Source of the DNA: a virus
Strand: one strand, 5' to 3'
IMG/VR virus record: IMGVR_UViG_3300010396_000010
Span: 8,350-72,349 of that record
DNA length: 64,000 nucleotides
Below, one piece after another: positions 7,880 through 64,000 of the stretch (position 1 is the first letter of the stretch; each line of letters starts with the position of its first letter). The translations under genes and the position numbers were made by a program. Under the pieces are notes generated by a model, which ran no database searches, had not been told where the DNA came from, and worked only from the letters and a program-made list of their open reading frames with translations.

Positions 7880-8599
7880 ATGGATTCATCAATGCCTATT
7901 TATCGTCAATATGTCGAGGTTCCACCGCCACAGCGGTTTCTGCAAACCATCGACGCCTATTTGGATTTGCTACGAGAAACGGATGGCACGTGGTCAGGGC
8001 GTCGCCTGGCGCGGGAGTCCGGACTGTCGCATAATTATTTCTCCGCATTCAAAGCCAGATTGAAAGATTTGCCCGACTATAGCCCCGGCGTCAATACCAT
8101 CGACCCCATCATTGCCGCGCTGAACCGGCACTTGCCCGGAGAGCAACGCTGGCCGCGTCTGGAAGCCCTGGAAGCCGCGAACGTCAAACCCGCCGACATC
8201 GAAGCCCAGCAAGTGCATATCCACGCCGAGCGCAGCAAGCCCGTAGCGCCACCCACTAACATCGACGTGTTGCCACCGCTCCCCGCGCAGATCGCGCTTC
8301 CTGTGCTGTCAGGCAGCATCATGGAGGCCAAGGGCATGGCTGCTGCGGTGGATACCCGCGCCGTGTTCCAGGTCAAGAGCAACATGGCGCTGGTGCAAGA
8401 TCCCCTTCCAGGGTATACGCCGCAGCGCGAGGGGGATTGGGCGCTGATTCAGTCGCCCGACGCGCCGACCCCGCAAGGAGTTCAGCCTTGGGCGCTGGTC
8501 CGCGAGGGGCAACACCTGCGGGCCGTCCCCTATGGCACGGCGAAGAGGCAGCAGATCGTGGCGTGGATCTTGGGGACACTCTGCCTCGATCCCGACTGA
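7880..8599 (+). CDS. CI-like repressor (XRE HTH plus degenerate S24-like C-terminal domain)
   Basis: WSGRRLARESGLSHNYFS HTH; LPVL..FQVKSNM..EGDWALI resembles an S24 fold. Confidence 0.55.
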   Translation: MDSSMPIYRQYVEVPPPQRFLQTIDAYLDLLRETDGTWSGRRLARESGLSHNYFSAFKARLKDLPDYSPGVNTIDPIIAALNRHLPGEQRWPRLEALEAANVKPADIEAQQVHIHAERSKPVAPPTNIDVLPPLPAQIALPVLSGSIMEAKGMAAAVDTRAVFQVKSNMALVQDPLPGYTPQREGDWALIQSPDAPTPQGVQPWALVREGQHLRAVPYGTAKRQQIVAWILGTLCLDPD

Positions 8600-14727: not shown

Positions 14728-14943
14728 ATGCAAAAGTGGGAATACCTCGTTATGACCGTTGGCCCGAACGATAAGTTGAATGTTCGGGCTATGGGTGAAA
14801 TGGGGGCTGATGGATGGGAACTCGCAGGGATAATGCCTAACGTGAAACCATTTCAACAATCAGCCGGAACGATCAGTATCGGATCTCAACTTGGCACTGA
14901 AAACAAACTGATCTTTAAGCGTCCGGTTCAAGAAGGGGAATAA
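14728..14943 (+). CDS. DUF4177-like protein
   Basis: MQKWEY...GADGWEL...LIFKRP signature. Confidence 0.8.
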   Translation: MQKWEYLVMTVGPNDKLNVRAMGEMGADGWELAGIMPNVKPFQQSAGTISIGSQLGTENKLIFKRPVQEGE

Positions 14944-14947
14944 ACAC

Positions 14948-14988
14948 AAAAGCGGAGGGCGGGATCAGGTGATCCCGCCCTCCGCTTT
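14948..14988. terminator. bidirectional intrinsic terminator
   Basis: AAAA-GCGGAGGGCGGGATCA-GG-TGATCCCGCCCTCCGC-TTT. Confidence 0.9.
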
Positions 14989-15334: not shown

Positions 15335-15363
15335 ATCATAGCATATCGCCTACATGTTGTCAA
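15335..15363 (-). promoter_or_regulatory. promoter of the ~380-nt RNA
   Basis: TTGACA-17-TATGAT with GATATG/extended -10. Confidence 0.75.
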
Positions 15364-15374
15364 CAACCTACACG

Positions 15375-15461
15375 AAAACGCCCACCCGCTCAACGTCTGC
15401 GCAGACCGGAGCGGATGGGCGTCTATCACAAGATGCAGCGGGAGACAAAACCTACTGCACG
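15375..15461 (-). ncRNA. predicted trans-acting antisense sRNA (~87 nt)
   Basis: Promoter, 5' hairpin with a UUUUGUCU loop, single-stranded UCUUGUGAUAG, 14-bp terminator stem plus UUUU; seeds complementary to five distant leaders. Confidence 0.75.
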
Positions 15462-15466
15462 TGTTC

Positions 15467-15495
15467 AGTGTCGCATAGACCAGCGCGTGCGTCAA
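15467..15495 (-). promoter_or_regulatory. promoter of the antisense sRNA
   Basis: TTGACG-17-GACACT with TG extension. Confidence 0.6.
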
Positions 15496-37904: not shown

Positions 37905-39419
37905 CTACCAGTTCGCGGTGTGGAATACGCGGGTATCCTGATGGTCTTTCACCAACGCTAGCCGTTTTTCCAGACTGAGGAACGCCGCGCGTCCCGCCAT
38001 CGCCGTGATCGCGTCACCCACGCCGTCAGCCTGATCATCATGCCGACCATTGGGAATTTGAATCAGTTCGGTTTCATAGTCATAGATCCAGGGAGCGCCA
38101 CGCCGATGGTAGACGGACTTTGCCCGATAGTGCGCCGCCGTTGTTGCCTGGCGACTCTCTTTATCCCCATGCCGCTCTAGTTCGATGATGGGCAGTCCTA
38201 ACCGCCGCGCATACTGGATGAGGGTAAGCTGGTAGGCGACCTTCTCAATGCCCACCGCGTAAGGATGCCATCGCGTATATGCTGTGTTGATCTCGTCCGG
38301 TTGTTCAGGACCAGGGAGTTTCTTGCGAACGATATCCACCACGAAGAAGCGGCCTTGGTGTGAGGCCACCGTCGCAATGACGAAATAGTCCGCCTTGGTC
38401 TTGACACTTGCCGCAGGGTCCACCGCCTGAAACCAGCGACAGGCACGGAAACTGACCGTCTCCTCAACGCCACTACTGTTCGTGAAGGTGATGCATTCGC
38501 GCTGCTCATCGACTTCGGCATACTGGAACCACTCCCGCTTGAAGGTGTTGCCTTCTTCGCTGCCGGGGTTGCCCTGGTAGAGACAGAGGAAATCAATGGG
38601 GTCCAGATCCTTCCGAATCTCGCGCAGCGCGTCAATGCCCCACACATCCGGCCAGTAGGATTCTTCGTTATCCGCCTCGCCCGTAATGGCGGGGAACGTC
38701 ACGAGGTCAAATCCCATCTTTGCTAGTCGCGGCACCGCATCATCATAGTGCCAGCGGTTGCAGACAAAGATGATGCGCCCACCGGGTTTGAGGCGACTCT
38801 TGATCACGGTCATAAAACGCCGGATAAACCGCGCCCGCCACGTCGGACTCTCAATCTCGTTCGGGTCAAACGGGTCGTCCAGAATAATCAGGTCGGCGCG
38901 ACGCCCAAGAGCGCCACCCATGAAGCCCATGCTGGAATACTGCGGGTCTTTCGCGCCCTGGTGACTCCACCCATCCTTGTCAACTATCGGCCATTTGCCG
39001 CTATGATCCCGCCACTTGAAGTACAAGCCCCGACTGGACCAGCCACGTTCTTTGTCCGGCATCACATCAGGAAAGATTTCCTCATGCCGCCCGTTTTGCT
39101 CATACACCTGCTGCAACGCCGTCAAGTAGGCGACAGCTTTATCATCGTTGGCGTGCAGGTGTAGCACAATCCAGTCAGGGTGATTGCCAATAATCCACGC
39201 TGGGGCGATCTCCGAGATCCACGTGCTTTTGCCGCTGCCGGGTGGACATACCACCACCGATCCCTTATTCCACTCCCTTGGCGCGACGGCATTGATAATG
39301 CCCTGATGGTGTGGCGCTGGTCGCAGCCCACGTGTCAGGACGCCATAGATGGCAAGAGATTCCCTCCCCCGGAGGATTTCGAGGGGTTTGAGTGCAGTGG
39401 GATCATCCATGTATTTCAC
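37905..39419 (-). CDS. terL: terminase large subunit
   Basis: PPGSGKST, GRRADLIILDDP, RWHYDD, VDPA, HDDQAD. Confidence 0.95.
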   Translation of the reverse strand: MKYMDDPTALKPLEILRGRESLAIYGVLTRGLRPAPHHQGIINAVAPREWNKGSVVVCPPGSGKSTWISEIAPAWIIGNHPDWIVLHLHANDDKAVAYLTALQQVYEQNGRHEEIFPDVMPDKERGWSSRGLYFKWRDHSGKWPIVDKDGWSHQGAKDPQYSSMGFMGGALGRRADLIILDDPFDPNEIESPTWRARFIRRFMTVIKSRLKPGGRIIFVCNRWHYDDAVPRLAKMGFDLVTFPAITGEADNEESYWPDVWGIDALREIRKDLDPIDFLCLYQGNPGSEEGNTFKREWFQYAEVDEQRECITFTNSSGVEETVSFRACRWFQAVDPAASVKTKADYFVIATVASHQGRFFVVDIVRKKLPGPEQPDEINTAYTRWHPYAVGIEKVAYQLTLIQYARRLGLPIIELERHGDKESRQATTAAHYRAKSVYHRRGAPWIYDYETELIQIPNGRHDDQADGVGDAITAMAGRAAFLSLEKRLALVKDHQDTRVFHTANW

Positions 39420-39645
39420 CTAATACTTGTCATTAATCCCACATAGGCTTCGTCGCCACTTTCCCGCATTCCCAATCCGCAGTTCCCCAATCCAGATACG
39501 ACATACCATGCACACCACTCTGTTGCAGCGTGTGCTTCACGGCATGCCGGAACTGCTTATGAGCATGCCGCTTATGCCGTTTCCTGCTGCCGTTATGGCA
39601 GTGCTGACACGAACAGGACTTGTACTCCCGGAACTTGTTCATTGC

Positions 39646-39864
39646 TTACGCCTCTTTCGGCGCTTCCCGCTTATTTGCTCGGATAATCAAGGTCTTTGGT
39701 AGTCCTCTCGCTGTCAATAGTTCGCGCAATTCATCATACGAAAACACTCTCGCCCCTTCGGGAATGGTGCATATCTCGCAGAGTGGCGATGGCATCATAA
39801 AACCACCACGGATATCATGTGCAACCATATCCGCAATCGCCTCTTGATATTCATCATTCGTCAT
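39646..39864 (-). CDS. hypothetical protein
   Basis: ATGA-coupled ORF. Confidence 0.5.
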   Translation of the reverse strand: MTNDEYQEAIADMVAHDIRGGFMMPSPLCEICTIPEGARVFSYDELRELLTARGLPKTLIIRANKREAPKEA

Positions 39865-40163
39865 GGCTTCTCATTCCTGGCTATAGCCGCATTCGCCCAC
39901 ATGACCGCTTCTTCCAATGCTGTCAACGCCAAACTCCGCTCTCGTGACTCCGGGGCCAGTTCGAGAAAGAGTAGCGCCAACGCTTTCCCCGCATCCCGTA
40001 GTTGCCCATACCGCACCACCTGCGTTCCCTGTGGTGCATGATAGGTGAAGTTATGGATCACCCGATCCCGATTAACGGGCGTCACCTTTGACTTCTTGGC
40101 TGCCACTGGCTTTCCCTTTAGTTGTGTTGCAGGGATGAATAACTCTTTGTCGTCACTAGCCAT
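39861..40163 (-). CDS. Acb2/Tad1-like hairpin protein (candidate immune-signal sponge)
   Basis: FTYHAP...SRERSLALTALEEAVMWANAAIAR. Confidence 0.65.
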   Translation of the reverse strand: MASDDKELFIPATQLKGKPVAAKKSKVTPVNRDRVIHNFTYHAPQGTQVVRYGQLRDAGKALALLFLELAPESRERSLALTALEEAVMWANAAIARNEKP

Positions 40164-40166
40164 TGC

Positions 40167-40502
40167 TTATTCCTCACCCATCATGGCACGAAACACGATC
40201 TCATATTGGCGCGTGAACTCTCGGTCCGCCTCGCGCATCACGTTATAGATCCGTCCTGCTTCTTCCCGCCAGTGCTGCTGCATCTGCCGCTCGGCCTCAT
40301 CACCGAAATCATCATGCAATCCTGCTACGATGCGCTCTATTTCCCGTAGCGTCTCTTCACTTATCACTGCCTGCCCCTTCGTCTGCTCCAATGAAATTTC
40401 TTTGTAGAATTTAGCGCGGTGCTTAGCCTTATCCACCGCGCCCCTTGTGCAATCATCGGCCCCTATGCAGTTACACAGCCGCCCCTCGGTGACACGTGAC
40501 AC
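40167..40502 (-). CDS. hypothetical protein
   Basis: ORF upstream in the same unit; start uncertain. Confidence 0.45.
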   Translation of the reverse strand: MSRVTEGRLCNCIGADDCTRGAVDKAKHRAKFYKEISLEQTKGQAVISEETLREIERIVAGLHDDFGDEAERQMQQHWREEAGRIYNVMREADREFTRQYEIVFRAMMGEE

Positions 40503-40677
40503 GGCGCATGCTGCGGCGAAGACATCTTATCAGCGATGGGCGACGGCACCACATGACGGCGCTCACAGCGCGTCACGGCATGCACCTCGCAGGTATGGCG
40601 TCTATACGCGCATGCGCCTACGCACACACGGATATCGAACGGTAGGCGCATAATGGATATGACTATTGGCAGTATAT

Positions 40678-40706
40678 TTGACATGGATACTCAGATGTGT
40701 GATACT
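40678..40706 (+). promoter_or_regulatory. promoter of the RNA-rich small-gene operon
   Basis: TTGACA-17-GATACT with GATGTG extension. Confidence 0.7.
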
Positions 40707-40712
40707 GAATCA

Positions 40713-41020
40713 ACAACTGAATACCACCTGATGAGCGAAGGGGACACGCGGGACCACGAACACCGTTACCAAGACTGGTCCATCTTGGTTACTTGAACAA
40801 TTGAATCAGCAGAGACGTATTAGAGCGGACCTATCCGATCTTATGAGTAGCGTGCAGTGTGAATGCATGCCGAGATCTCAGAGTAGGGGGACGATCCTCA
40901 ACCTGTGAGAGCCGGGACTCTGATATGCATAGCGGCAAGCAAAACCAGTGTTTGGTAGGACTCATAATCCTGCCTGTGCAGATGCGACTTCTGCGCTTGT
41001 CGCCCGGCTCAGATGAGCCT
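40713..41020 (+). ncRNA. predicted structured leader RNA with several pseudoknots
   Basis: About ten helices, including GGACCA/TGGTCC, TTATGAG/CTCATAA and GAGCCGG/CCGGCTC long-range pairs. Confidence 0.6.
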
Positions 41021-41049
41021 ATCACAAGAAAAGAAACGAGACAACGACC

Positions 41050-41220
41050 ATGTCAAAGGAACAACTGCTCAAGATCATTGCTCATGCACAAGCACAAATC
41101 GATGAGATGGAAGCAGAGGAATCACTGTACGAGTATGAGTACCGCGAAGAGCGCGCTTTGGATATGCGTATGGAAGCATACGCCTATTATAGCGGACTCA
41201 ATGACGACTACGATTATTAG
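41050..41220 (+). CDS. 56-aa acidic, Tyr-rich protein (not in the ORF track)
   Basis: MSKEQLLKIIAHAQAQIDEMEAEESLYEYEYREERALDMRMEAYAYYSGLNDDYDY, after motif copy 1. Confidence 0.75.
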   Translation: MSKEQLLKIIAHAQAQIDEMEAEESLYEYEYREERALDMRMEAYAYYSGLNDDYDY

Positions 41221-41284
41221 GCCGAAACCTAGGGGACTATACATCCCTGATGGTCTGCTGGTTATGCCAGCACTGAGGATGGCC
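41220..41284 (+). ncRNA. type II hammerhead ribozyme
   Basis: GGCC-GAAAC..GGUC^-UGCUGG/CCAGCA-CUGAGGA-U-GGCC; predicted cleavage after 41255. Confidence 0.85.
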
Positions 41285-41330
41285 GCTCTCACTGAGAGCT
41301 AGTATCGCAAGAAAAAAAAAGAGACAAACC

Positions 41331-41594
41331 ATGAACGTCTATCAGCAGACCTTGTACGACCGTGCAGCAGATGGCACTTTCCAACCCAGCGTAACGGAAT
41401 CCGGTGTCGCCTGTCAGTCGTGCGTACAAGACTGGATCAATGGCAGCAGTCAACAGCGTCGGCAAGATGATGGATCGCTCGTCTTGGTTGAGTGGCATCA
41501 TTACAATCTGATCTCCATCATCATCATCAACCAGCCAAACCAATACCTTGACGCATGCGAGACGTTGCACACTGCATCATGCGTGTGCTGCTAA
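41331..41594 (+). CDS. small Cys-containing hypothetical protein
   Basis: Follows motif copy 2. Confidence 0.65.
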   Translation: MNVYQQTLYDRAADGTFQPSVTESGVACQSCVQDWINGSSQQRRQDDGSLVLVEWHHYNLISIIIINQPNQYLDACETLHTASCVCC

Positions 41595-41633
41595 GACAGC
41601 ACACATCACAAGAAAGAAAAGAGACAAACCACC

Positions 41634-41843
41634 ATGAAAACCATCATGCTGCTGATCGTATCCATCATCCTGTTGTGCGCCATTGGCACCGCACACATGC
41701 ACACAGCAACCTACCCCAGCAACGTGTGTGCCAGCAATCAGCACATTGCCTCGTATGCACAGCCAACCACCGTGCGGGTACTGGTGCCAGGCAGCACCGA
41801 TCCCCAAGTGGTCGATATCCAGCAGTGCGTAGCCAACCACTAG
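41634..41843 (+). CDS. small secreted/membrane protein
   Basis: MKTIMLLIVSIILLCAIG signal-like N-terminus; follows motif copy 3. Confidence 0.65.
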   Translation: MKTIMLLIVSIILLCAIGTAHMHTATYPSNVCASNQHIASYAQPTTVRVLVPGSTDPQVVDIQQCVANH

Positions 41844-41940
41844 CCATAGCGCATGCCGGTACAGCCGTAGCCTTCGATGGCAGCATGCGTACCGATCCTC
41901 AGAGCGAGGATCTATCACAAGAGAAACGAGACAAGAAACA

Positions 41941-42231
41941 ATGATGCAAGCAAACAAGGCGTACCACTTCATCACGAGCGCGGGCGAAATGGGCATATAC
42001 AGTACCCGCAATCGTAACACGGCCATCATCCATGCCATCGTGCGCGATACTACCGCATATGACGATCTGGCTCGGTATGCATCGAGCGATTATCCAGTTT
42101 TCGCTCGCTGCGTGCGGGGGTACATCAACGATTTCCACGAGTCGCTATCCCCGATCTTGTATCAGCTTGCAACGATCCCCAATCTCTGCTGGCTGTATGA
42201 CATGCTCCGGCAGATGGCCGATATCGGATAG
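41941..42231 (+). CDS. hypothetical protein
   Basis: Follows motif copy 4. Confidence 0.65.
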   Translation: MMQANKAYHFITSAGEMGIYSTRNRNTAIIHAIVRDTTAYDDLARYASSDYPVFARCVRGYINDFHESLSPILYQLATIPNLCWLYDMLRQMADIG

Positions 42232-42239
42232 GGTGAGGA

Positions 42240-42299
42240 TGGGGGATATACTTCTCTAGAGAGGATATATATATCCTCTCTAGAGAAGTATATCCCCCA
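42240..42299. repeat. perfect 60-bp palindrome
   Basis: TGGGGGATATACTTCTCTAGAGAGGATATA|TATATCCTCTCTAGAGAAGTATATCCCCCA equals its own reverse complement. Confidence 0.97.
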
Positions 42300-42392
42300 G
42301 ATCTGCCGCATTGCAAGGCAATGCGAAAGTTTCACCACGAACTGCATAACATTGCATGAGAGTACCGCAAAAACACCGCACAATGCGGAACA

Positions 42393-42902
42393 TTATGCCT
42401 CATCATCGGATGGCGTGATCTGGCGTGGTGCTTCACTGCGAGACTGGATGATCTGCGCGTCGATCATGGCGATCTGATCGTCACTGATGATCCCGGCGCG
42501 TTGTGCTTCGGCGAGGATGTGGACGTGCAGGTGTTGCTGTGGCTGTGGTGGTGTCTGGTCCTGGGGACGTTGCTTGGCATAGGACTCAGGATGGCGGCGC
42601 TCTAAGAGCCACGCTGCGGCTTTCCAATCGGTGTCGGCTGCGGCTGTGACTTTGACCAGTAGGGCATGAGCGCCAAGGGCTTGCGCACGTTGGAGAGACG
42701 CAACTAATGCAACATATGGTTGCTCTCCTGACTCACCTTTCCGTAGCCATTGCCGTAGCGTCTCATGCGAGATACCGCAAGCCTCAGCAGCAAGGTGGTA
42801 CGTCATGCCGTCAGCAATGAGCGCGACCAGTTGCACCATGAGGCTATCGGTGAGTTTGGTAGGTCGCCCTCCAGCGTAGCGCGTGATATCGCTCTCACTC
42901 AT
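42393..42902 (-). CDS. terS: putative terminase small subunit
   Basis: GRPTKLT, HTH AAEACGISHETLRQW, DWKAAAWLLERR. Confidence 0.75.
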   Translation of the reverse strand: MSESDITRYAGGRPTKLTDSLMVQLVALIADGMTYHLAAEACGISHETLRQWLRKGESGEQPYVALVASLQRAQALGAHALLVKVTAAADTDWKAAAWLLERRHPESYAKQRPQDQTPPQPQQHLHVHILAEAQRAGIISDDQIAMIDAQIIQSRSEAPRQITPSDDEA

Positions 42903-42917
42903 GGTACTATCCTTTTG

Positions 42918-42954
42918 ACTAATACTTGACATGAGTAGCAGGATATGCGAGAAT
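42918..42954 (+). promoter_or_regulatory. phage promoter family member
   Basis: ACTAATAC-TTGACA-17(GATATG)-GAGAAT. Confidence 0.7.
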
Positions 42955-42986
42955 GAAGTATCACAAGTGAATCGAGACAAGAGACA

Positions 42987-43628
42987 ATGCAAGTTACTGT
43001 TACCGTGCAAGTGCCTGACAAGCACCGCACACGTGTTCGTCTGTTGCGCATGCAGGTGCGACCCGGCGCAGTGGCGCTAGGGAAGGCGCACAGCCGGGCA
43101 TTGCCAGCAACGCAAGAGATGCCGGTTATCGCGTCACCACTGGACGATCCTAATTTCATGGGCGGAGTGATGGCGTTACTGTATACGCCAGATCCCACAC
43201 CCGGTCCCAAGCCACGTAAGGCATCGTGTGATATTGATGCGAAGCTCCTGGTTGAACTGTGCGATTTCCGTGAGACAGCGCAACGCAACGCCGATCAAGA
43301 GCAACAATTTGCCCAGGATCGCGCCGATGAACGCAGCACAGAAAACAAACTTCGGCAACGTCACGGCAAGGAATTGATTCCCGCTGATCCGGAAATGGAG
43401 CAAGAATCGGCTGGTAAGATTGCCGGATACTTGCTCGTTGCGGATGCGATGCAAGAAGTTATCACGGCATGTAAACGCGGTTTCGATGATTATCTCGCAT
43501 GCTTACCAGCGCAAGTGGAATATCTAGAAAGCAACATGACCAATCAGAACGACCCTTTTAGCAGCATGCGCGACAAAATTATTGCCGCCGAAGTCTCTGA
43601 AATCACGCGCCGATGGATGGGGGAATAA
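42987..43628 (+). CDS. hypothetical protein
   Basis: Follows motif copy 5; first gene of the parB-like unit. Confidence 0.7.
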   Translation: MQVTVTVQVPDKHRTRVRLLRMQVRPGAVALGKAHSRALPATQEMPVIASPLDDPNFMGGVMALLYTPDPTPGPKPRKASCDIDAKLLVELCDFRETAQRNADQEQQFAQDRADERSTENKLRQRHGKELIPADPEMEQESAGKIAGYLLVADAMQEVITACKRGFDDYLACLPAQVEYLESNMTNQNDPFSSMRDKIIAAEVSEITRRWMGE

Positions 43629-57156: not shown

Positions 57157-57738
57157 ATGGAAGCGATCAAAATCGAGGAAACAACCTACCACGAAACGCA
57201 CGTGATTAATTCCTGCTTCAGCTATGGTGATGCGAGTGTAACGACCTTCACTATGGGCAAAATCCGCGAACACAACGAACGACGGGAATATGCAACGCTG
57301 CGCATTTACACCGAAGACGGCGCGCGAACCATTCAGCTTGAAGCTGATCAAATGGATGAAGTTTCTCGCCTCTGGCAAGGCGAGAAAGAGTCACACGGCC
57401 TCTCCGAACTGCGCGAGATGTATGACGCATTGGTTGCTGAGCATCAAAGCCTGATACAGTCACATGACAACCTTGGCATATCCTTTGGTGTGCTTGCCGA
57501 GGATTACGAAAGCAAGTCCACTGATCTTGCCAAGCACTACAACATCAACAATCAGGCGTTGCTCGATGAAAACGAGGCGTTAAAAAAGCGCATCGAGCAG
57601 TTACAAAACGTGGCCATTCAAGCGTACTTGGACATCGAGAGCGGTCATGCACAGAGGTCATACGACGCACTGGTGGCAATGCATCCCGACGAAAACGATC
57701 CCTATGGCCTGAATGAAGTCGCCAGCACCACAGCATAA
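57157..57738 (+). CDS. coiled-coil hypothetical protein
   Basis: ORF with purine-rich leader. Confidence 0.6.
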   Translation: MEAIKIEETTYHETHVINSCFSYGDASVTTFTMGKIREHNERREYATLRIYTEDGARTIQLEADQMDEVSRLWQGEKESHGLSELREMYDALVAEHQSLIQSHDNLGISFGVLAEDYESKSTDLAKHYNINNQALLDENEALKKRIEQLQNVAIQAYLDIESGHAQRSYDALVAMHPDENDPYGLNEVASTTA

Positions 57739-57802
57739 CCCCCCATTCCTCCAACACCGGGCGCGTCCGGCGAGATGCGCCCCACACATGAAAGGACCAG
57801 CC

Positions 57803-58657
57803 GTGACAGAAGAAACCTTATCACCATCCCTCATTCGCCAGTTGATGCGCCCCGGCGCACTGGCTGAGGACACTGCGCCACCCAACCTGGACGACGCGCA
57901 ACAACGCGCCCTACACACTGCCCTTGCCGCACTCGATGCGCAGGATCGGGAGATCCTCCAACTGCGCTACGATGCGAATTGCACCATTGAGGAGATCGCC
58001 GCGCATCTCCTGACCAGCCCGCAGATCGTGGAGCATCGAGAACAGGACGCCCTCCACCAGTTGCGGCAATATCTACCGCCAACGCGAGAGGACATCGCAG
58101 CATCACCCACGCGGCGCTATGTGCCAGCACCAGCACAGAAGAAACCCGTTCCACCAACCACAGGCAAAGGAAGGGCAATCAGTGAGAAACAATTTGCTGC
58201 GTATATGGCGGCAAACCCTGATGCCACCATACGGGGAACCTCTGAGGATCTCGGTATTTCTTCTGCTACCGTGACCGTGTATCGCAAGGCATGGCATGAA
58301 CACCAAGCGCGACACGTTCCCGCTGCACCAGCACCACAACCCGTTCCGTTGCCACCTGCGCCCGCGCCTGTGCCAGCACCACCAAGCCAACCGGAACCGG
58401 AGCCGCCCACGCCCACCAATGCAGCCTACACGCGCACGCTCTACGAGGAACAAGTCTATCAAGCGCGACTGTGGATGGAAATGCTGGAACGCCAGTGGCG
58501 CGAGGCAAAGGAAAACGCAGAGGAGGCAGTCGAATACGCCGATACCGTGCAACAGCGGTATCTCCAAGCCAAAGCCAACTACGAACGCGCACAGAAGATC
58601 GCCCGCGCTCACTATGCGATGTTGCACGGCCAAGTTGTTGAAGAATTGGAGGGATAA
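57803..58657 (+). CDS. sigma-70 region-4-like HTH protein with second HTH and coiled coil
   Basis: ALAALDAQDREILQLRY...TIEEIAAHL; ATIRGTSEDLGISSATV. Confidence 0.75.
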   Translation: MTEETLSPSLIRQLMRPGALAEDTAPPNLDDAQQRALHTALAALDAQDREILQLRYDANCTIEEIAAHLLTSPQIVEHREQDALHQLRQYLPPTREDIAASPTRRYVPAPAQKKPVPPTTGKGRAISEKQFAAYMAANPDATIRGTSEDLGISSATVTVYRKAWHEHQARHVPAAPAPQPVPLPPAPAPVPAPPSQPEPEPPTPTNAAYTRTLYEEQVYQARLWMEMLERQWREAKENAEEAVEYADTVQQRYLQAKANYERAQKIARAHYAMLHGQVVEELEG

Positions 58658-62719: not shown

Positions 62720-62960
62720 CTCAGATACCCCATAGCTAAAAGCTAGGGGCTTGTGAAAGCGAGCCTGGATCTGACCAGTCTCAGTCCTGAAAGGGGCTAT
62801 GTTAGGGGCGAATACAACGATAGGCACCGTTGGGTGGCACCTCAGCCTGACGCTCTGCGGCCAACAGTTAAACAGATAGACGGGGTGCGAGTCAGTGCTG
62901 GTGGCAAACAAACCGCCTCATAACCTTGACGAGGGGAACCTTACCTGGGCAACCAGAGAT
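62720..62960 (+). ncRNA. omegaRNA scaffold (HEARO-like)
   Basis: TCAGATACCCC..CTAAAAGCTAGGGGCTTG..GACCAG.CTCAG..ATAGGCACC..CTCTGCGG..GTTAAACAG..GACGAGGGGAAC directly upstream of iscB. Confidence 0.88.
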
Positions 62961-62975
62961 TCTTAGGAGTTGGCA

Positions 62976-64000
62976 ATGTCATTCGTATTCGTAGTCGATC
63001 AGGACCGCAAGCCGCTTGAGCCGGTGCATCCAGGGCGAGCGCGGTTTCTGCTCAGTGCGGGACACGCCGCCGTTTTGCGGCGCTATCCCTTCACGATCAT
63101 CCTGAAAGAAGTCAATCCCGATGCCGAGCCGCAGCCGTTGCGCGTGAAACTTGATCCGGGCAGCAAAACGACCGGTGTAGCAGTGGTCAATGACGACACT
63201 GGGCAAGTCGTGTGGGCCGCGGAGATTACCCATCGCGGACAGCAGGTGAAGGCCAGCCTGGACAGCCGACGGGCGCAAAGGCATGGGCGACGGTCACGCC
63301 ATACCCGCTATCGTCAGCCGCGATTTGATAACCGCACCCGCCCTGCTGGATGGCTACCACCCTCGATGGAAAGCCGATTAGCGAATACCCTGACATGGGT
63401 AGCACGCCTGATGAAATGGTGTCCCATCGACGCGATCAGCATGGAACTGGTGAAGTTCGATACCCATCTCATGCAGAACGCCGAAATCAGCGGGGTGGAA
63501 TATCAGCAGGGCGAATTGCAGGGCTACGAAGTGCGGGAATATCTGTTAGAGAAGTGGCATCGAGCCTGTGCGTACTGTGGGGCTAAGGATGTCCCCTTGC
63601 AAGTGGAACATATCATCCCGCGCAAACGGCAGGGTTCAGACAGAATCAGCAATCTCACCCTGGCTTGTGAGTCGTGCAACCAGCGCAAGGGGACACAGAC
63701 CGCCGCAGAGTTTGGTTTTCCTGATATCCAAGCCCAGGCCAAACAGCCATTACGGGATTCCGCAGCGGTGAATACAACGCGCTGGGCGCTGTACGAACGC
63801 TTACAAGGGCTGGGGTTGCATGTTGAGGTGGGAACGGGTGGACGAACCAAGTGGAACCGCACCCAACGTGGCTTGCCGAAAACACATTGGCTTGACGCGG
63901 CATGCGTGGGGGCGTCCACGCCCGCTACCTTGCATGTGGGACAGATCGTTCCTCTGGCGGTCACGGCGATGGGGCGGCATAGTCGGCAGATGTGCCGAAC
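62976..64000 (+). CDS. iscB: RNA-guided endonuclease IscB (3' truncated; absent from the ORF track)
   Basis: MSFVFVVDQDRKPLEP (PLMP-like), LDPGSKTTG RuvC-I, Arg-rich bridge helix, GWLPPS, ELVKFD, HNH CAYCG..EHIIPR..SNLTLACESCN, THWLDAACVG. Confidence 0.96.
   Translation, partial: MSFVFVVDQDRKPLEPVHPGRARFLLSAGHAAVLRRYPFTIILKEVNPDAEPQPLRVKLDPGSKTTGVAVVNDDTGQVVWAAEITHRGQQVKASLDSRRAQRHGRRSRHTRYRQPRFDNRTRPAGWLPPSMESRLANTLTWVARLMKWCPIDAISMELVKFDTHLMQNAEISGVEYQQGELQGYEVREYLLEKWHRACAYCGAKDVPLQVEHIIPRKRQGSDRISNLTLACESCNQRKGTQTAAEFGFPDIQAQAKQPLRDSAAVNTTRWALYERLQGLGLHVEVGTGGRTKWNRTQRGLPKTHWLDAACVGASTPATLHVGQIVPLAVTAMGRHSRQMCR

Follow-up and report, generated by a model that had tools for sequence, protein, structure and literature searches.

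The question raised by positions 40713-41020 of the phage DNA analysed here is why a set of small early genes should be preceded by some three hundred nucleotides of untranslated RNA, and what that RNA does. The region belongs to IMG/VR virus record IMGVR_UViG_3300010396_000010, a complete phage genome of 72,349 bp with terminal repeats obtained from a soil metagenome, of which a 64-kb stretch was analysed (positions 8,350 to 72,349 of the record; hereafter "the window", in whose coordinates positions are given unless stated otherwise). A preliminary description of this DNA had taken the region for a leader RNA of about 300 nt with several pseudoknots, possibly a new motif or a ribozyme. We propose a different function, for which we put the odds at about even (a probability of roughly 0.5): the region may be a Nus-factor antitermination leader of the type found in ribosomal RNA (rrn) operons, placed in front of a σ70-driven early cassette, with the folds further downstream serving RNA processing or stability. 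Apart from the rrn-type element, the leader is peculiar to the phage lineage.

Transcription of the region is indicated by a σ70-type promoter (Table 1) which ends 6-7 nt upstream of 40713 and has a predicted start near 40712-40714. The first position chosen in the preliminary description is thus the predicted transcription start, and transcription probably begins at about 40713. The stretch 40713-41049 is accordingly a predicted non-coding 5' leader of about 337 nt, followed by an early cassette of four small plus-strand open reading frames (ORFs; e1-e4, 41050-42231). The codon-position GC pattern of e1-e4, which in e1 takes values typical of coding sequence (0.60/0.25/0.51), is seen in no frame of the leader, and in this respect the earlier reading of the region as a leader RNA holds. 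A hidden protein gene was considered and rejected: the ORFs at 40653-40796, 40831-41025 (minus strand) and 40859-41302 give unprotein-like translations and lack the coding GC pattern.

The most meaningful element of the leader turned out to be a string at 40787-40805 that had already been listed as boxA-like. The host of the phage probably belongs to the Ktedonobacteria (Chloroflexota), because its only close relative, L030 (TerL identity 73%), comes from a contig of 5.9 kb in a Ktedonobacterales metagenome-assembled genome (MAG). Thirteen rrn leaders were compared, from 13 genomes of the class to which this MAG belongs. The box ACCTTGACAAYTGAAGAGTGG is present in all of them (13/13), 119-224 nt upstream of the 16S gene, as is the conserved block ACCTTGACAAYTGAAGAGTGGAAAGCAGA, and a hairpin is predicted in each, with its end 0-13 nt ahead of the box; the rrn leaders of the class have in common a 30-nt block that lies behind a hairpin and has a boxA-like word at its start. 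This block resembles both the E. coli and the B. subtilis boxA consensus, given in an excerpt of PMC13753749 as UGCUCUUUAACA and AUGAUCUUUGAAA, respectively, and the same excerpt places the B. subtilis rrn box immediately downstream of a small hairpin.

The phage box shares 12-16 of its 18 positions with each of the 13 class rrn boxes, lies on the sense strand downstream of the promoter, and directly follows a hairpin (Table 1). Scored with a 15-column rrn-boxA matrix, it reaches 22.3 bits, more than any other site on either strand of the phage; the second-ranking site is a half-site where the RNA is predicted to begin, and its 10.4 bits are not significant alone. None of 40 random genomes attained 22.3 bits (0/40), and among 1.56 Mb of unrelated loci 0 sites did so, the best having 20.0 bits. 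For the hairpin in front of the box a z score of -1.96 was obtained (8/200 shuffles as stable), with an only moderate pairing probability of 0.36 in the full leader. Host factors are available as well, NusB having been found above the curated cut-off in 41/41 sampled genomes of the class and Rho in 39/41.

According to the proposed mechanism, host RNA polymerase carrying σ70 would start at about 40713, and the hairpin and boxA would emerge some 55-95 nt into the transcript, where NusB-S10 could bind the box on the nascent RNA. Together with NusA and NusG, NusB-S10 would render the polymerase resistant to termination, and the polymerase so modified would withstand Rho across the long untranslated leader and the hairpin-rich cassette. 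A cloverleaf and an adjoining 5-bp hairpin at the 3' end of the leader (see below) would most likely act in RNA processing or stability, and may give the e1 message a 5' end capped by a hairpin, comparable to the ends that the short leaders of the relative make directly.

Several observations weigh against this interpretation. The 15 columns of the matrix were picked after the match had been seen; with 10 core columns the site is still the top one of the phage, yet 1.0 such site occurs per random genome, with a 26-column matrix it ranks third, and with an 80-column rrn model it is the top match at an nhmmer E value of 0.59. The box also overlaps a -35-like TTGAC(A), so that the matrix partly rewards promoter-like words, and the 3' half of the rrn block is missing in the phage, the likeness being limited to the first ~18 nt. 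A rut-like C-rich stretch is not evident in the leader, along which C/G stays at 0.7-1.1, and no intrinsic terminator was found on the plus strand within 39500-42500; therefore, the role against Rho is one that we only infer. The host is known to class level only, and since the MAG contig is short, its bin assignment is weak evidence for the host. Conservation of the box was not found in related phages, for which L030 is the only and, with n = 1, a weak sample, and about 280 nt of the leader are absent from it. Searches for leader homologues gave no match in the phage collection (by blastn), only chance matches of 15-25 nt (E>1) in the genome of the relative, and 0 matches in 169 genomes of the class, while two exact 21-nt words of the leader occurred 0 and 0 times in IMG/VR. 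As no copy of the leader was found, there is hence no covariation.

These absences bear on another interpretation, doubtful but deserving to be taken seriously, in which the leader is a functionless, lineage-specific spacer or recombination scar: the early region would be mosaic, some 280 nt would have entered it through illegitimate recombination, perhaps together with a scrap of a host rrn leader, and the folds would be incidental. The layout of the relative matches that of the phage (terS is followed by a palindrome, an early cassette in counter-orientation, a divergent control region, the late genes and TerL), with a TTGACA-17-TATAAT promoter at the equivalent place and a like start module, but its early leader of ~55 nt consists only of a 5'-terminal hairpin and that module. 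In addition, the early genes of the two phages are unrelated and share no homology, no search found a homologue of the leader, the overall fold does not exceed that of shuffled sequences and long-range pairs occur at chance frequency (see below). A spacer would, however, leave unexplained a boxA match far above chance, with the strand, position and preceding hairpin that are expected of such a signal. The likeness to rrn leaders stops after ~18 nt and so looks like a retained core, not a recent scrap, and the cloverleaf with its hairpin is more stable than 200/200 shuffles. L030 has no boxA (its best site has 10.6 bits), and its 55-nt leader without one fits a signal that is needed only when the leader is long. 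Two further origins were tried and rejected: tblastn found nothing to suggest that the leader derives by decay from early genes like those of the relative, and for an insertion with target-site duplication the direct repeat CTCAGATG, at only 8 nt, is at chance level.

When set beside known systems, the proposed antitermination leader shares with rrn leaders (hairpin/boxB, boxA and boxC, served by NusB-S10, NusA, NusG and SuhB) a hairpin followed by boxA, tens of nucleotides past a σ70 promoter, in untranslated RNA. It differs from them in lacking the AGAGTGGAAAGCAGA part of the conserved rrn block, and its box precedes messenger RNA for small proteins instead of rRNA, the binding of the factors being predicted from sequence. 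By analogy with nutL and nutR of lambda, it may be an early leader in which a phage uses a borrowed host boxA for processive transcription of its early genes. In lambda, boxA is followed by boxB, whereas the phage has the rrn order, with the hairpin first, and thus does not conform to the lambda type. Family searches identified no N-like protein among the early ORFs, which, as N proteins are small and diverse, does not show that one is absent. The put RNAs of HK022 are cis-acting stem-loops that modify RNA polymerase, and boxA is not known to be part of put. The leader resembles them in being folded RNA just downstream of an early promoter with no N-like protein identified, and no put RNA was matched in the Rfam scans. 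Control of non-rRNA transcripts through boxA, as at the suhB 5' untranslated region, is described as established in E. coli and Salmonella (PMC5725501 and PMC2800207). The host phylum sets the present leader apart from both lambda and suhB, and the gammaproteobacterial consensus GYTCTTTAANA, as quoted in an excerpt of PMC5725501, is matched by eye at 7/10 specified positions.

If the boxA works, phages of Chloroflexota would hijack the ribosomal antitermination of their host as lambda does in E. coli, with the rrn layout and perhaps without N, and an old paradigm would reach a phylum in which phages and transcription control are almost unstudied. Judged from titles and the opening lines of abstracts, none of the listed papers that mention both Ktedonobacteria and phages deals with such a phage. 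The phage carries a copy of boxA in its class-specific form, so that the element could also serve as a bioinformatic marker of the host.

Table 1. Positions of the leader elements and neighbouring genes in the window
Feature	Position	Strand	Remarks
TerL	37905-39419	minus	
Acb2/Tad1 protein gene	39861-40163	minus	
111-aa ORF	40167-40502	minus	late side
σ70-type early promoter	40678-40706	+	TTGACA, 17 nt, TGtGATACT; 10/12 matches plus extended -10 (TG)
Weak second boxA-like half-site	40707-40721	+	GAATCAACAACTGAA; second-best site of the phage, at the predicted RNA 5' end
Hairpin, boxB-like by position	40765-40792	+	GUUACCAAGA / UCUUGGUUAC, 8-nt loop; directly before boxA
rrn-type boxA	40788-40805	+	GUUACUUGAACAAUUGAA; ~78 nt past the predicted start
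Hairpin	40850-40870	+	GCGUGCA / UGCAUGC; pairing probability 0.82; 40835-40880 z -2.08
Cloverleaf	40932-41003	+	four-way junction, 9-bp closing stem and three arms; -31.5 kcal/mol
Hairpin	41006-41019	+	GGCUC AGAU GAGCC; first element of the module, one nt before the ATCACAAG box
e1 translation-start module	41021-41052	+	ATCACAAG, A-rich spacer, GAGACAA, N, ATG
e1	41050-41220	+	56-aa acidic ORF, first of e1-e4 (ORF list)
TerS	42393-43025	minus	phrog_4102, E 5.6e-26

Downstream of boxA, a stem enclosing three small hairpins had been noted in the preliminary description, and this structure proved both stable and highly probable. It forms the cloverleaf of Table 1, with pairing probabilities of 0.97 for the closing stem and of 0.71, 0.98 and 0.99 for the arms. 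The segment 40930-41005 has a z score of -3.5, and 40930-41022, which takes in the adjoining hairpin, one of -4.3, with 0/200 shuffles as stable in either case; the latter ranks 76/14452 among the 93-nt segments of the phage on both strands. Only this 3' part of the leader folds beyond chance.

In its shape the cloverleaf recalls a tRNA. The middle arm carries a 7-nt loop, CUCAUAA, which is anticodon-loop-like in presenting U, then CAU, then A, and the third arm, of 5 bp with the 7-nt loop UGCGACU, is T-like. ARAGORN calls it, in mitochondrial mode only, as mtRNA-Met at 40933-41005; its z score of -3.10 is the lowest among the 12 mitochondrial-mode calls in the 72-kb phage, the others ranging from +0.70 to -3.08. 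In bacterial mode, 0 tRNA genes were found in the window, and 0 also with thresholds lowered to 80% (-ps80), and the Rfam tRNA model had no match at E<=10 on 141 nt. The cloverleaf is therefore tRNA-shaped but not a recognisable tRNA.

It has to be asked whether this structure is the actual product of the locus. In such a small RNA gene, which we regard as unlikely, boxA would shield a transcript that is not translated, as is the case for rRNA, and the cloverleaf would be cut out by RNase P together with a nuclease that processes tRNA 3' ends, either as punctuation that makes the 5' end of the e1 mRNA or as a free tRNA-like decoy with an initiator-type CAU loop. The tRNA-Met call and the CUCAUAA loop, T-like arm and closing stem, all highly probable, agree with this, as does the position of the cloverleaf, which ends 2 nt before the hairpin and start module of e1. 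In L030 the hairpin-plus-module equivalents stand at the very 5' end of primary transcripts, so that cleavage at the cloverleaf may make a like end; the analogy suggests that such cleavage would give the e1 message a hairpin-type 5' end. Against a tRNA-derived gene stand the rejection by ARAGORN in bacterial mode and by Rfam, the absence of homologues and covariation, and the rate of mitochondrial-mode calls, since 12 of them in 72 kb give a call within 340 nt a chance of ~3-6%. With 9 bp in the closing stem, a D-loop of 4 nt that lacks GG, and UGCGA in the third loop instead of the standard T-loop word UUCRA, the details of the cloverleaf also depart from tRNA and tRNA-like processing signals.

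A broader version of the same idea, also improbable, would make the locus a miniature unit in the style of an rRNA operon, with promoter, hairpin, boxA and a tRNA-shaped RNA which host tRNA-processing enzymes would excise, leaving the e1 message with a 5' end capped by its hairpin and releasing a tRNA-like RNA with an initiator-type CAU loop. The released RNA could then act on host factors, for example as a decoy for tRNA-targeting defences, and the first start site under control of a small RNA (sRNA) would begin right after the cut. In either case the cloverleaf is a concrete candidate for a tRNA-like punctuation of phage mRNA.

The leader as a whole is not the unusually structured RNA of ~300 nt that had been claimed. 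The minimum free energy of 40713-41052 is -100 kcal/mol (z -1.07), 18/100 dinucleotide shuffles fold equally well, and for the 5' third (40713-40835) z is +1.37. All of the complementary string pairs quoted in support of the claim do exist at the coordinates given for them (9/9), but the multi-pseudoknot architecture built on them finds no backing, as long-range complementary pairs occur at chance frequency. When perfect Watson-Crick helices in 40713-41020 were compared with 500 shuffles, 8 were observed against 8.0 expected at a length of at least 6 nt, 4 against 1.9 at 7 nt or more (reached by 13% of shuffles) and 2 against 0.47 at 8 nt or more (7%); therefore, the three pairs read as pseudoknots or long-range contacts carry no weight. 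Base-pair probabilities from the Boltzmann ensemble of the full leader point the same way for two of the other helices, GAUCU/AGAUC (0.002) and UCAGAGU/ACUCUGA (0.003). The supposed switch, in which GAGCCGG would pair with CCGGCUC in competition with the hairpin GGCUC/GAGCC next to the start module, is at odds with probabilities of 0.001 for the former and 0.995 for the latter. Hairpins directly precede the modules of e1, e2, e3 and e4, and GGCUC/GAGCC is thus a repeated unit, not a switch peculiar to the leader.

The suggestion of a ribozyme fared no better. At the gathering score, the sole Rfam match in the window is HEARO (62720-62944); at E<=1 the whole window has 7 matches, among them 0 ribozymes, and at E<=10 none of the 10 matches in 39500-42500 falls within 40713-41020, where no covariance model of a self-cleaving ribozyme (hammerhead, twister, pistol, hatchet or HDV-like) or a riboswitch matched. 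Proximity to hammerheads had been given as an argument, yet none was found anywhere in the window. Nor is a new conserved motif supported: no search found a homologue, the segment is absent from the sole relative, and as far as the data reach, with one relative only, neither conservation nor covariation is seen. We conclude that the leader is no ribozyme and no switch built from pseudoknots. Among the readings considered here, the least probable is accordingly that of a novel regulatory RNA with several pseudoknots, which would either cleave itself or alternately expose and hide the first sRNA target; this reading can appeal to the complementary strings, to the excess of 8-nt pairs that 7% of shuffles match, and to a plausible sRNA complementary to the start module (about 15372-15465, minus strand; see below), and the non-significant pairs, the failed switch helix and the missing ribozyme or riboswitch family speak against it. 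Both the ribozyme and the pseudoknots can be given up as an explanation.

Since the inverted repeats might also work at the level of DNA, as operator, packaging or replication sites beside the terminase genes, their numbers and surroundings were considered as well. The region does lie between terS and terL, and 14 inverted-repeat pairs are present in 40400-41100. A DNA site is nevertheless very unlikely, given that repeat counts are at chance level, that the stable fold is specific to one strand (z +1.04 for the minus strand of the leader, against the negative value of the plus strand), that GCATGC is not clustered more densely there than in the rest of the phage, and that the integrases are 27-31 kb away.

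The antitermination leader proposed here runs into a translation-start module that recurs in the phage. It consists of ATCRCAAG, a mostly A-rich spacer of 6-9 nt, GAGACAA, 3-7 nt and ATG. Six modules are present, all on the plus strand and all before ORF starts, at 41021, 41304, 41605, 41914 and 42960 and, outside the window, at genome position 4241; they belong to e1-e4, to a 213-aa gene at 42987 and to the one gene outside the window. The relative has two modules, each just after a σ70 promoter and a small hairpin, while late genes have GGAGG-type sites in place of the module. Matches to the module motif are far above chance (3 against 0.01 expected). In IMG/VR the pattern gave 34 single matches, about the estimated chance number, and one that was inspected lies within a 796-aa ORF.

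A candidate phage sRNA that would target these modules is found at 15372-15494 on the minus strand, where ~95 nt (about 15372-15465) downstream of a promoter-like TTGACG-17-GACACT contain exact complements of both invariant module boxes (UUGUCUC, 9 nt, CUUGUGAU) and end in a long GC hairpin with a U-rich tail. The case for it is an exact 8+7-nt pair in the right order; raw duplex energies, including those for binding inside the leader, are not above the genome background. Judging from this complementarity, the sRNA could act as a common repressor of the six early genes that bear a module. Directly after its terminator, a strong σ70-type promoter (11/12 matches plus TG) is located at 15335-15363 on the minus strand, and an 18-bp terminator hairpin (14949-14988, minus strand) follows ~350 nt downstream; the two could define a short transcript. 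A weak, sub-threshold Rfam match to antisense_SR1 was observed at 14765-14988.

The phage is temperate, as follows from its gene content, which includes two tyrosine integrases; a portal protein, two sigma-like proteins and a Ser/Thr kinase were found as well. The leader occupies the gap between the minus-strand late genes (the 111-aa ORF, Acb2 and TerL) and the plus-strand e1-e4, a cassette that is counter-oriented between terS and terL. Neither e1 nor the other small early ORFs could be assigned to a family in Pfam and PHROG searches, and no relatives were found through e1. Searches with TerL returned 13 loci in IMG/VR, all at most 37% identical, 14 loci in metagenomes, at most 32% identical, and relatives in 3/169 class genomes, of which only G001 is close.

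A near-perfect palindrome of 84 nt (42228-42311) separates the cassette from terS and surpasses every other structure of the phage in stability on both strands. Its probable role is that of a two-way terminator, and it could alternatively be a protein-binding site; a different palindrome occupies the same place in L030. Upstream of the first late gene, a non-coding block has been kept in both phages (40395-40465, corresponding to 2425-2500 in L030) that includes CAATCATCGGCCCC and may be a late promoter for a sigma-like protein (51-941; 57713-58657). A scan with a 14-nt motif from the late side gave chance matches only. The Acb2/Tad1-type protein encoded just upstream of the terminase genes is an anti-defence sponge, and at the right end of the window a HEARO RNA is accompanied by an IscB-like HNH protein (62720-63998).

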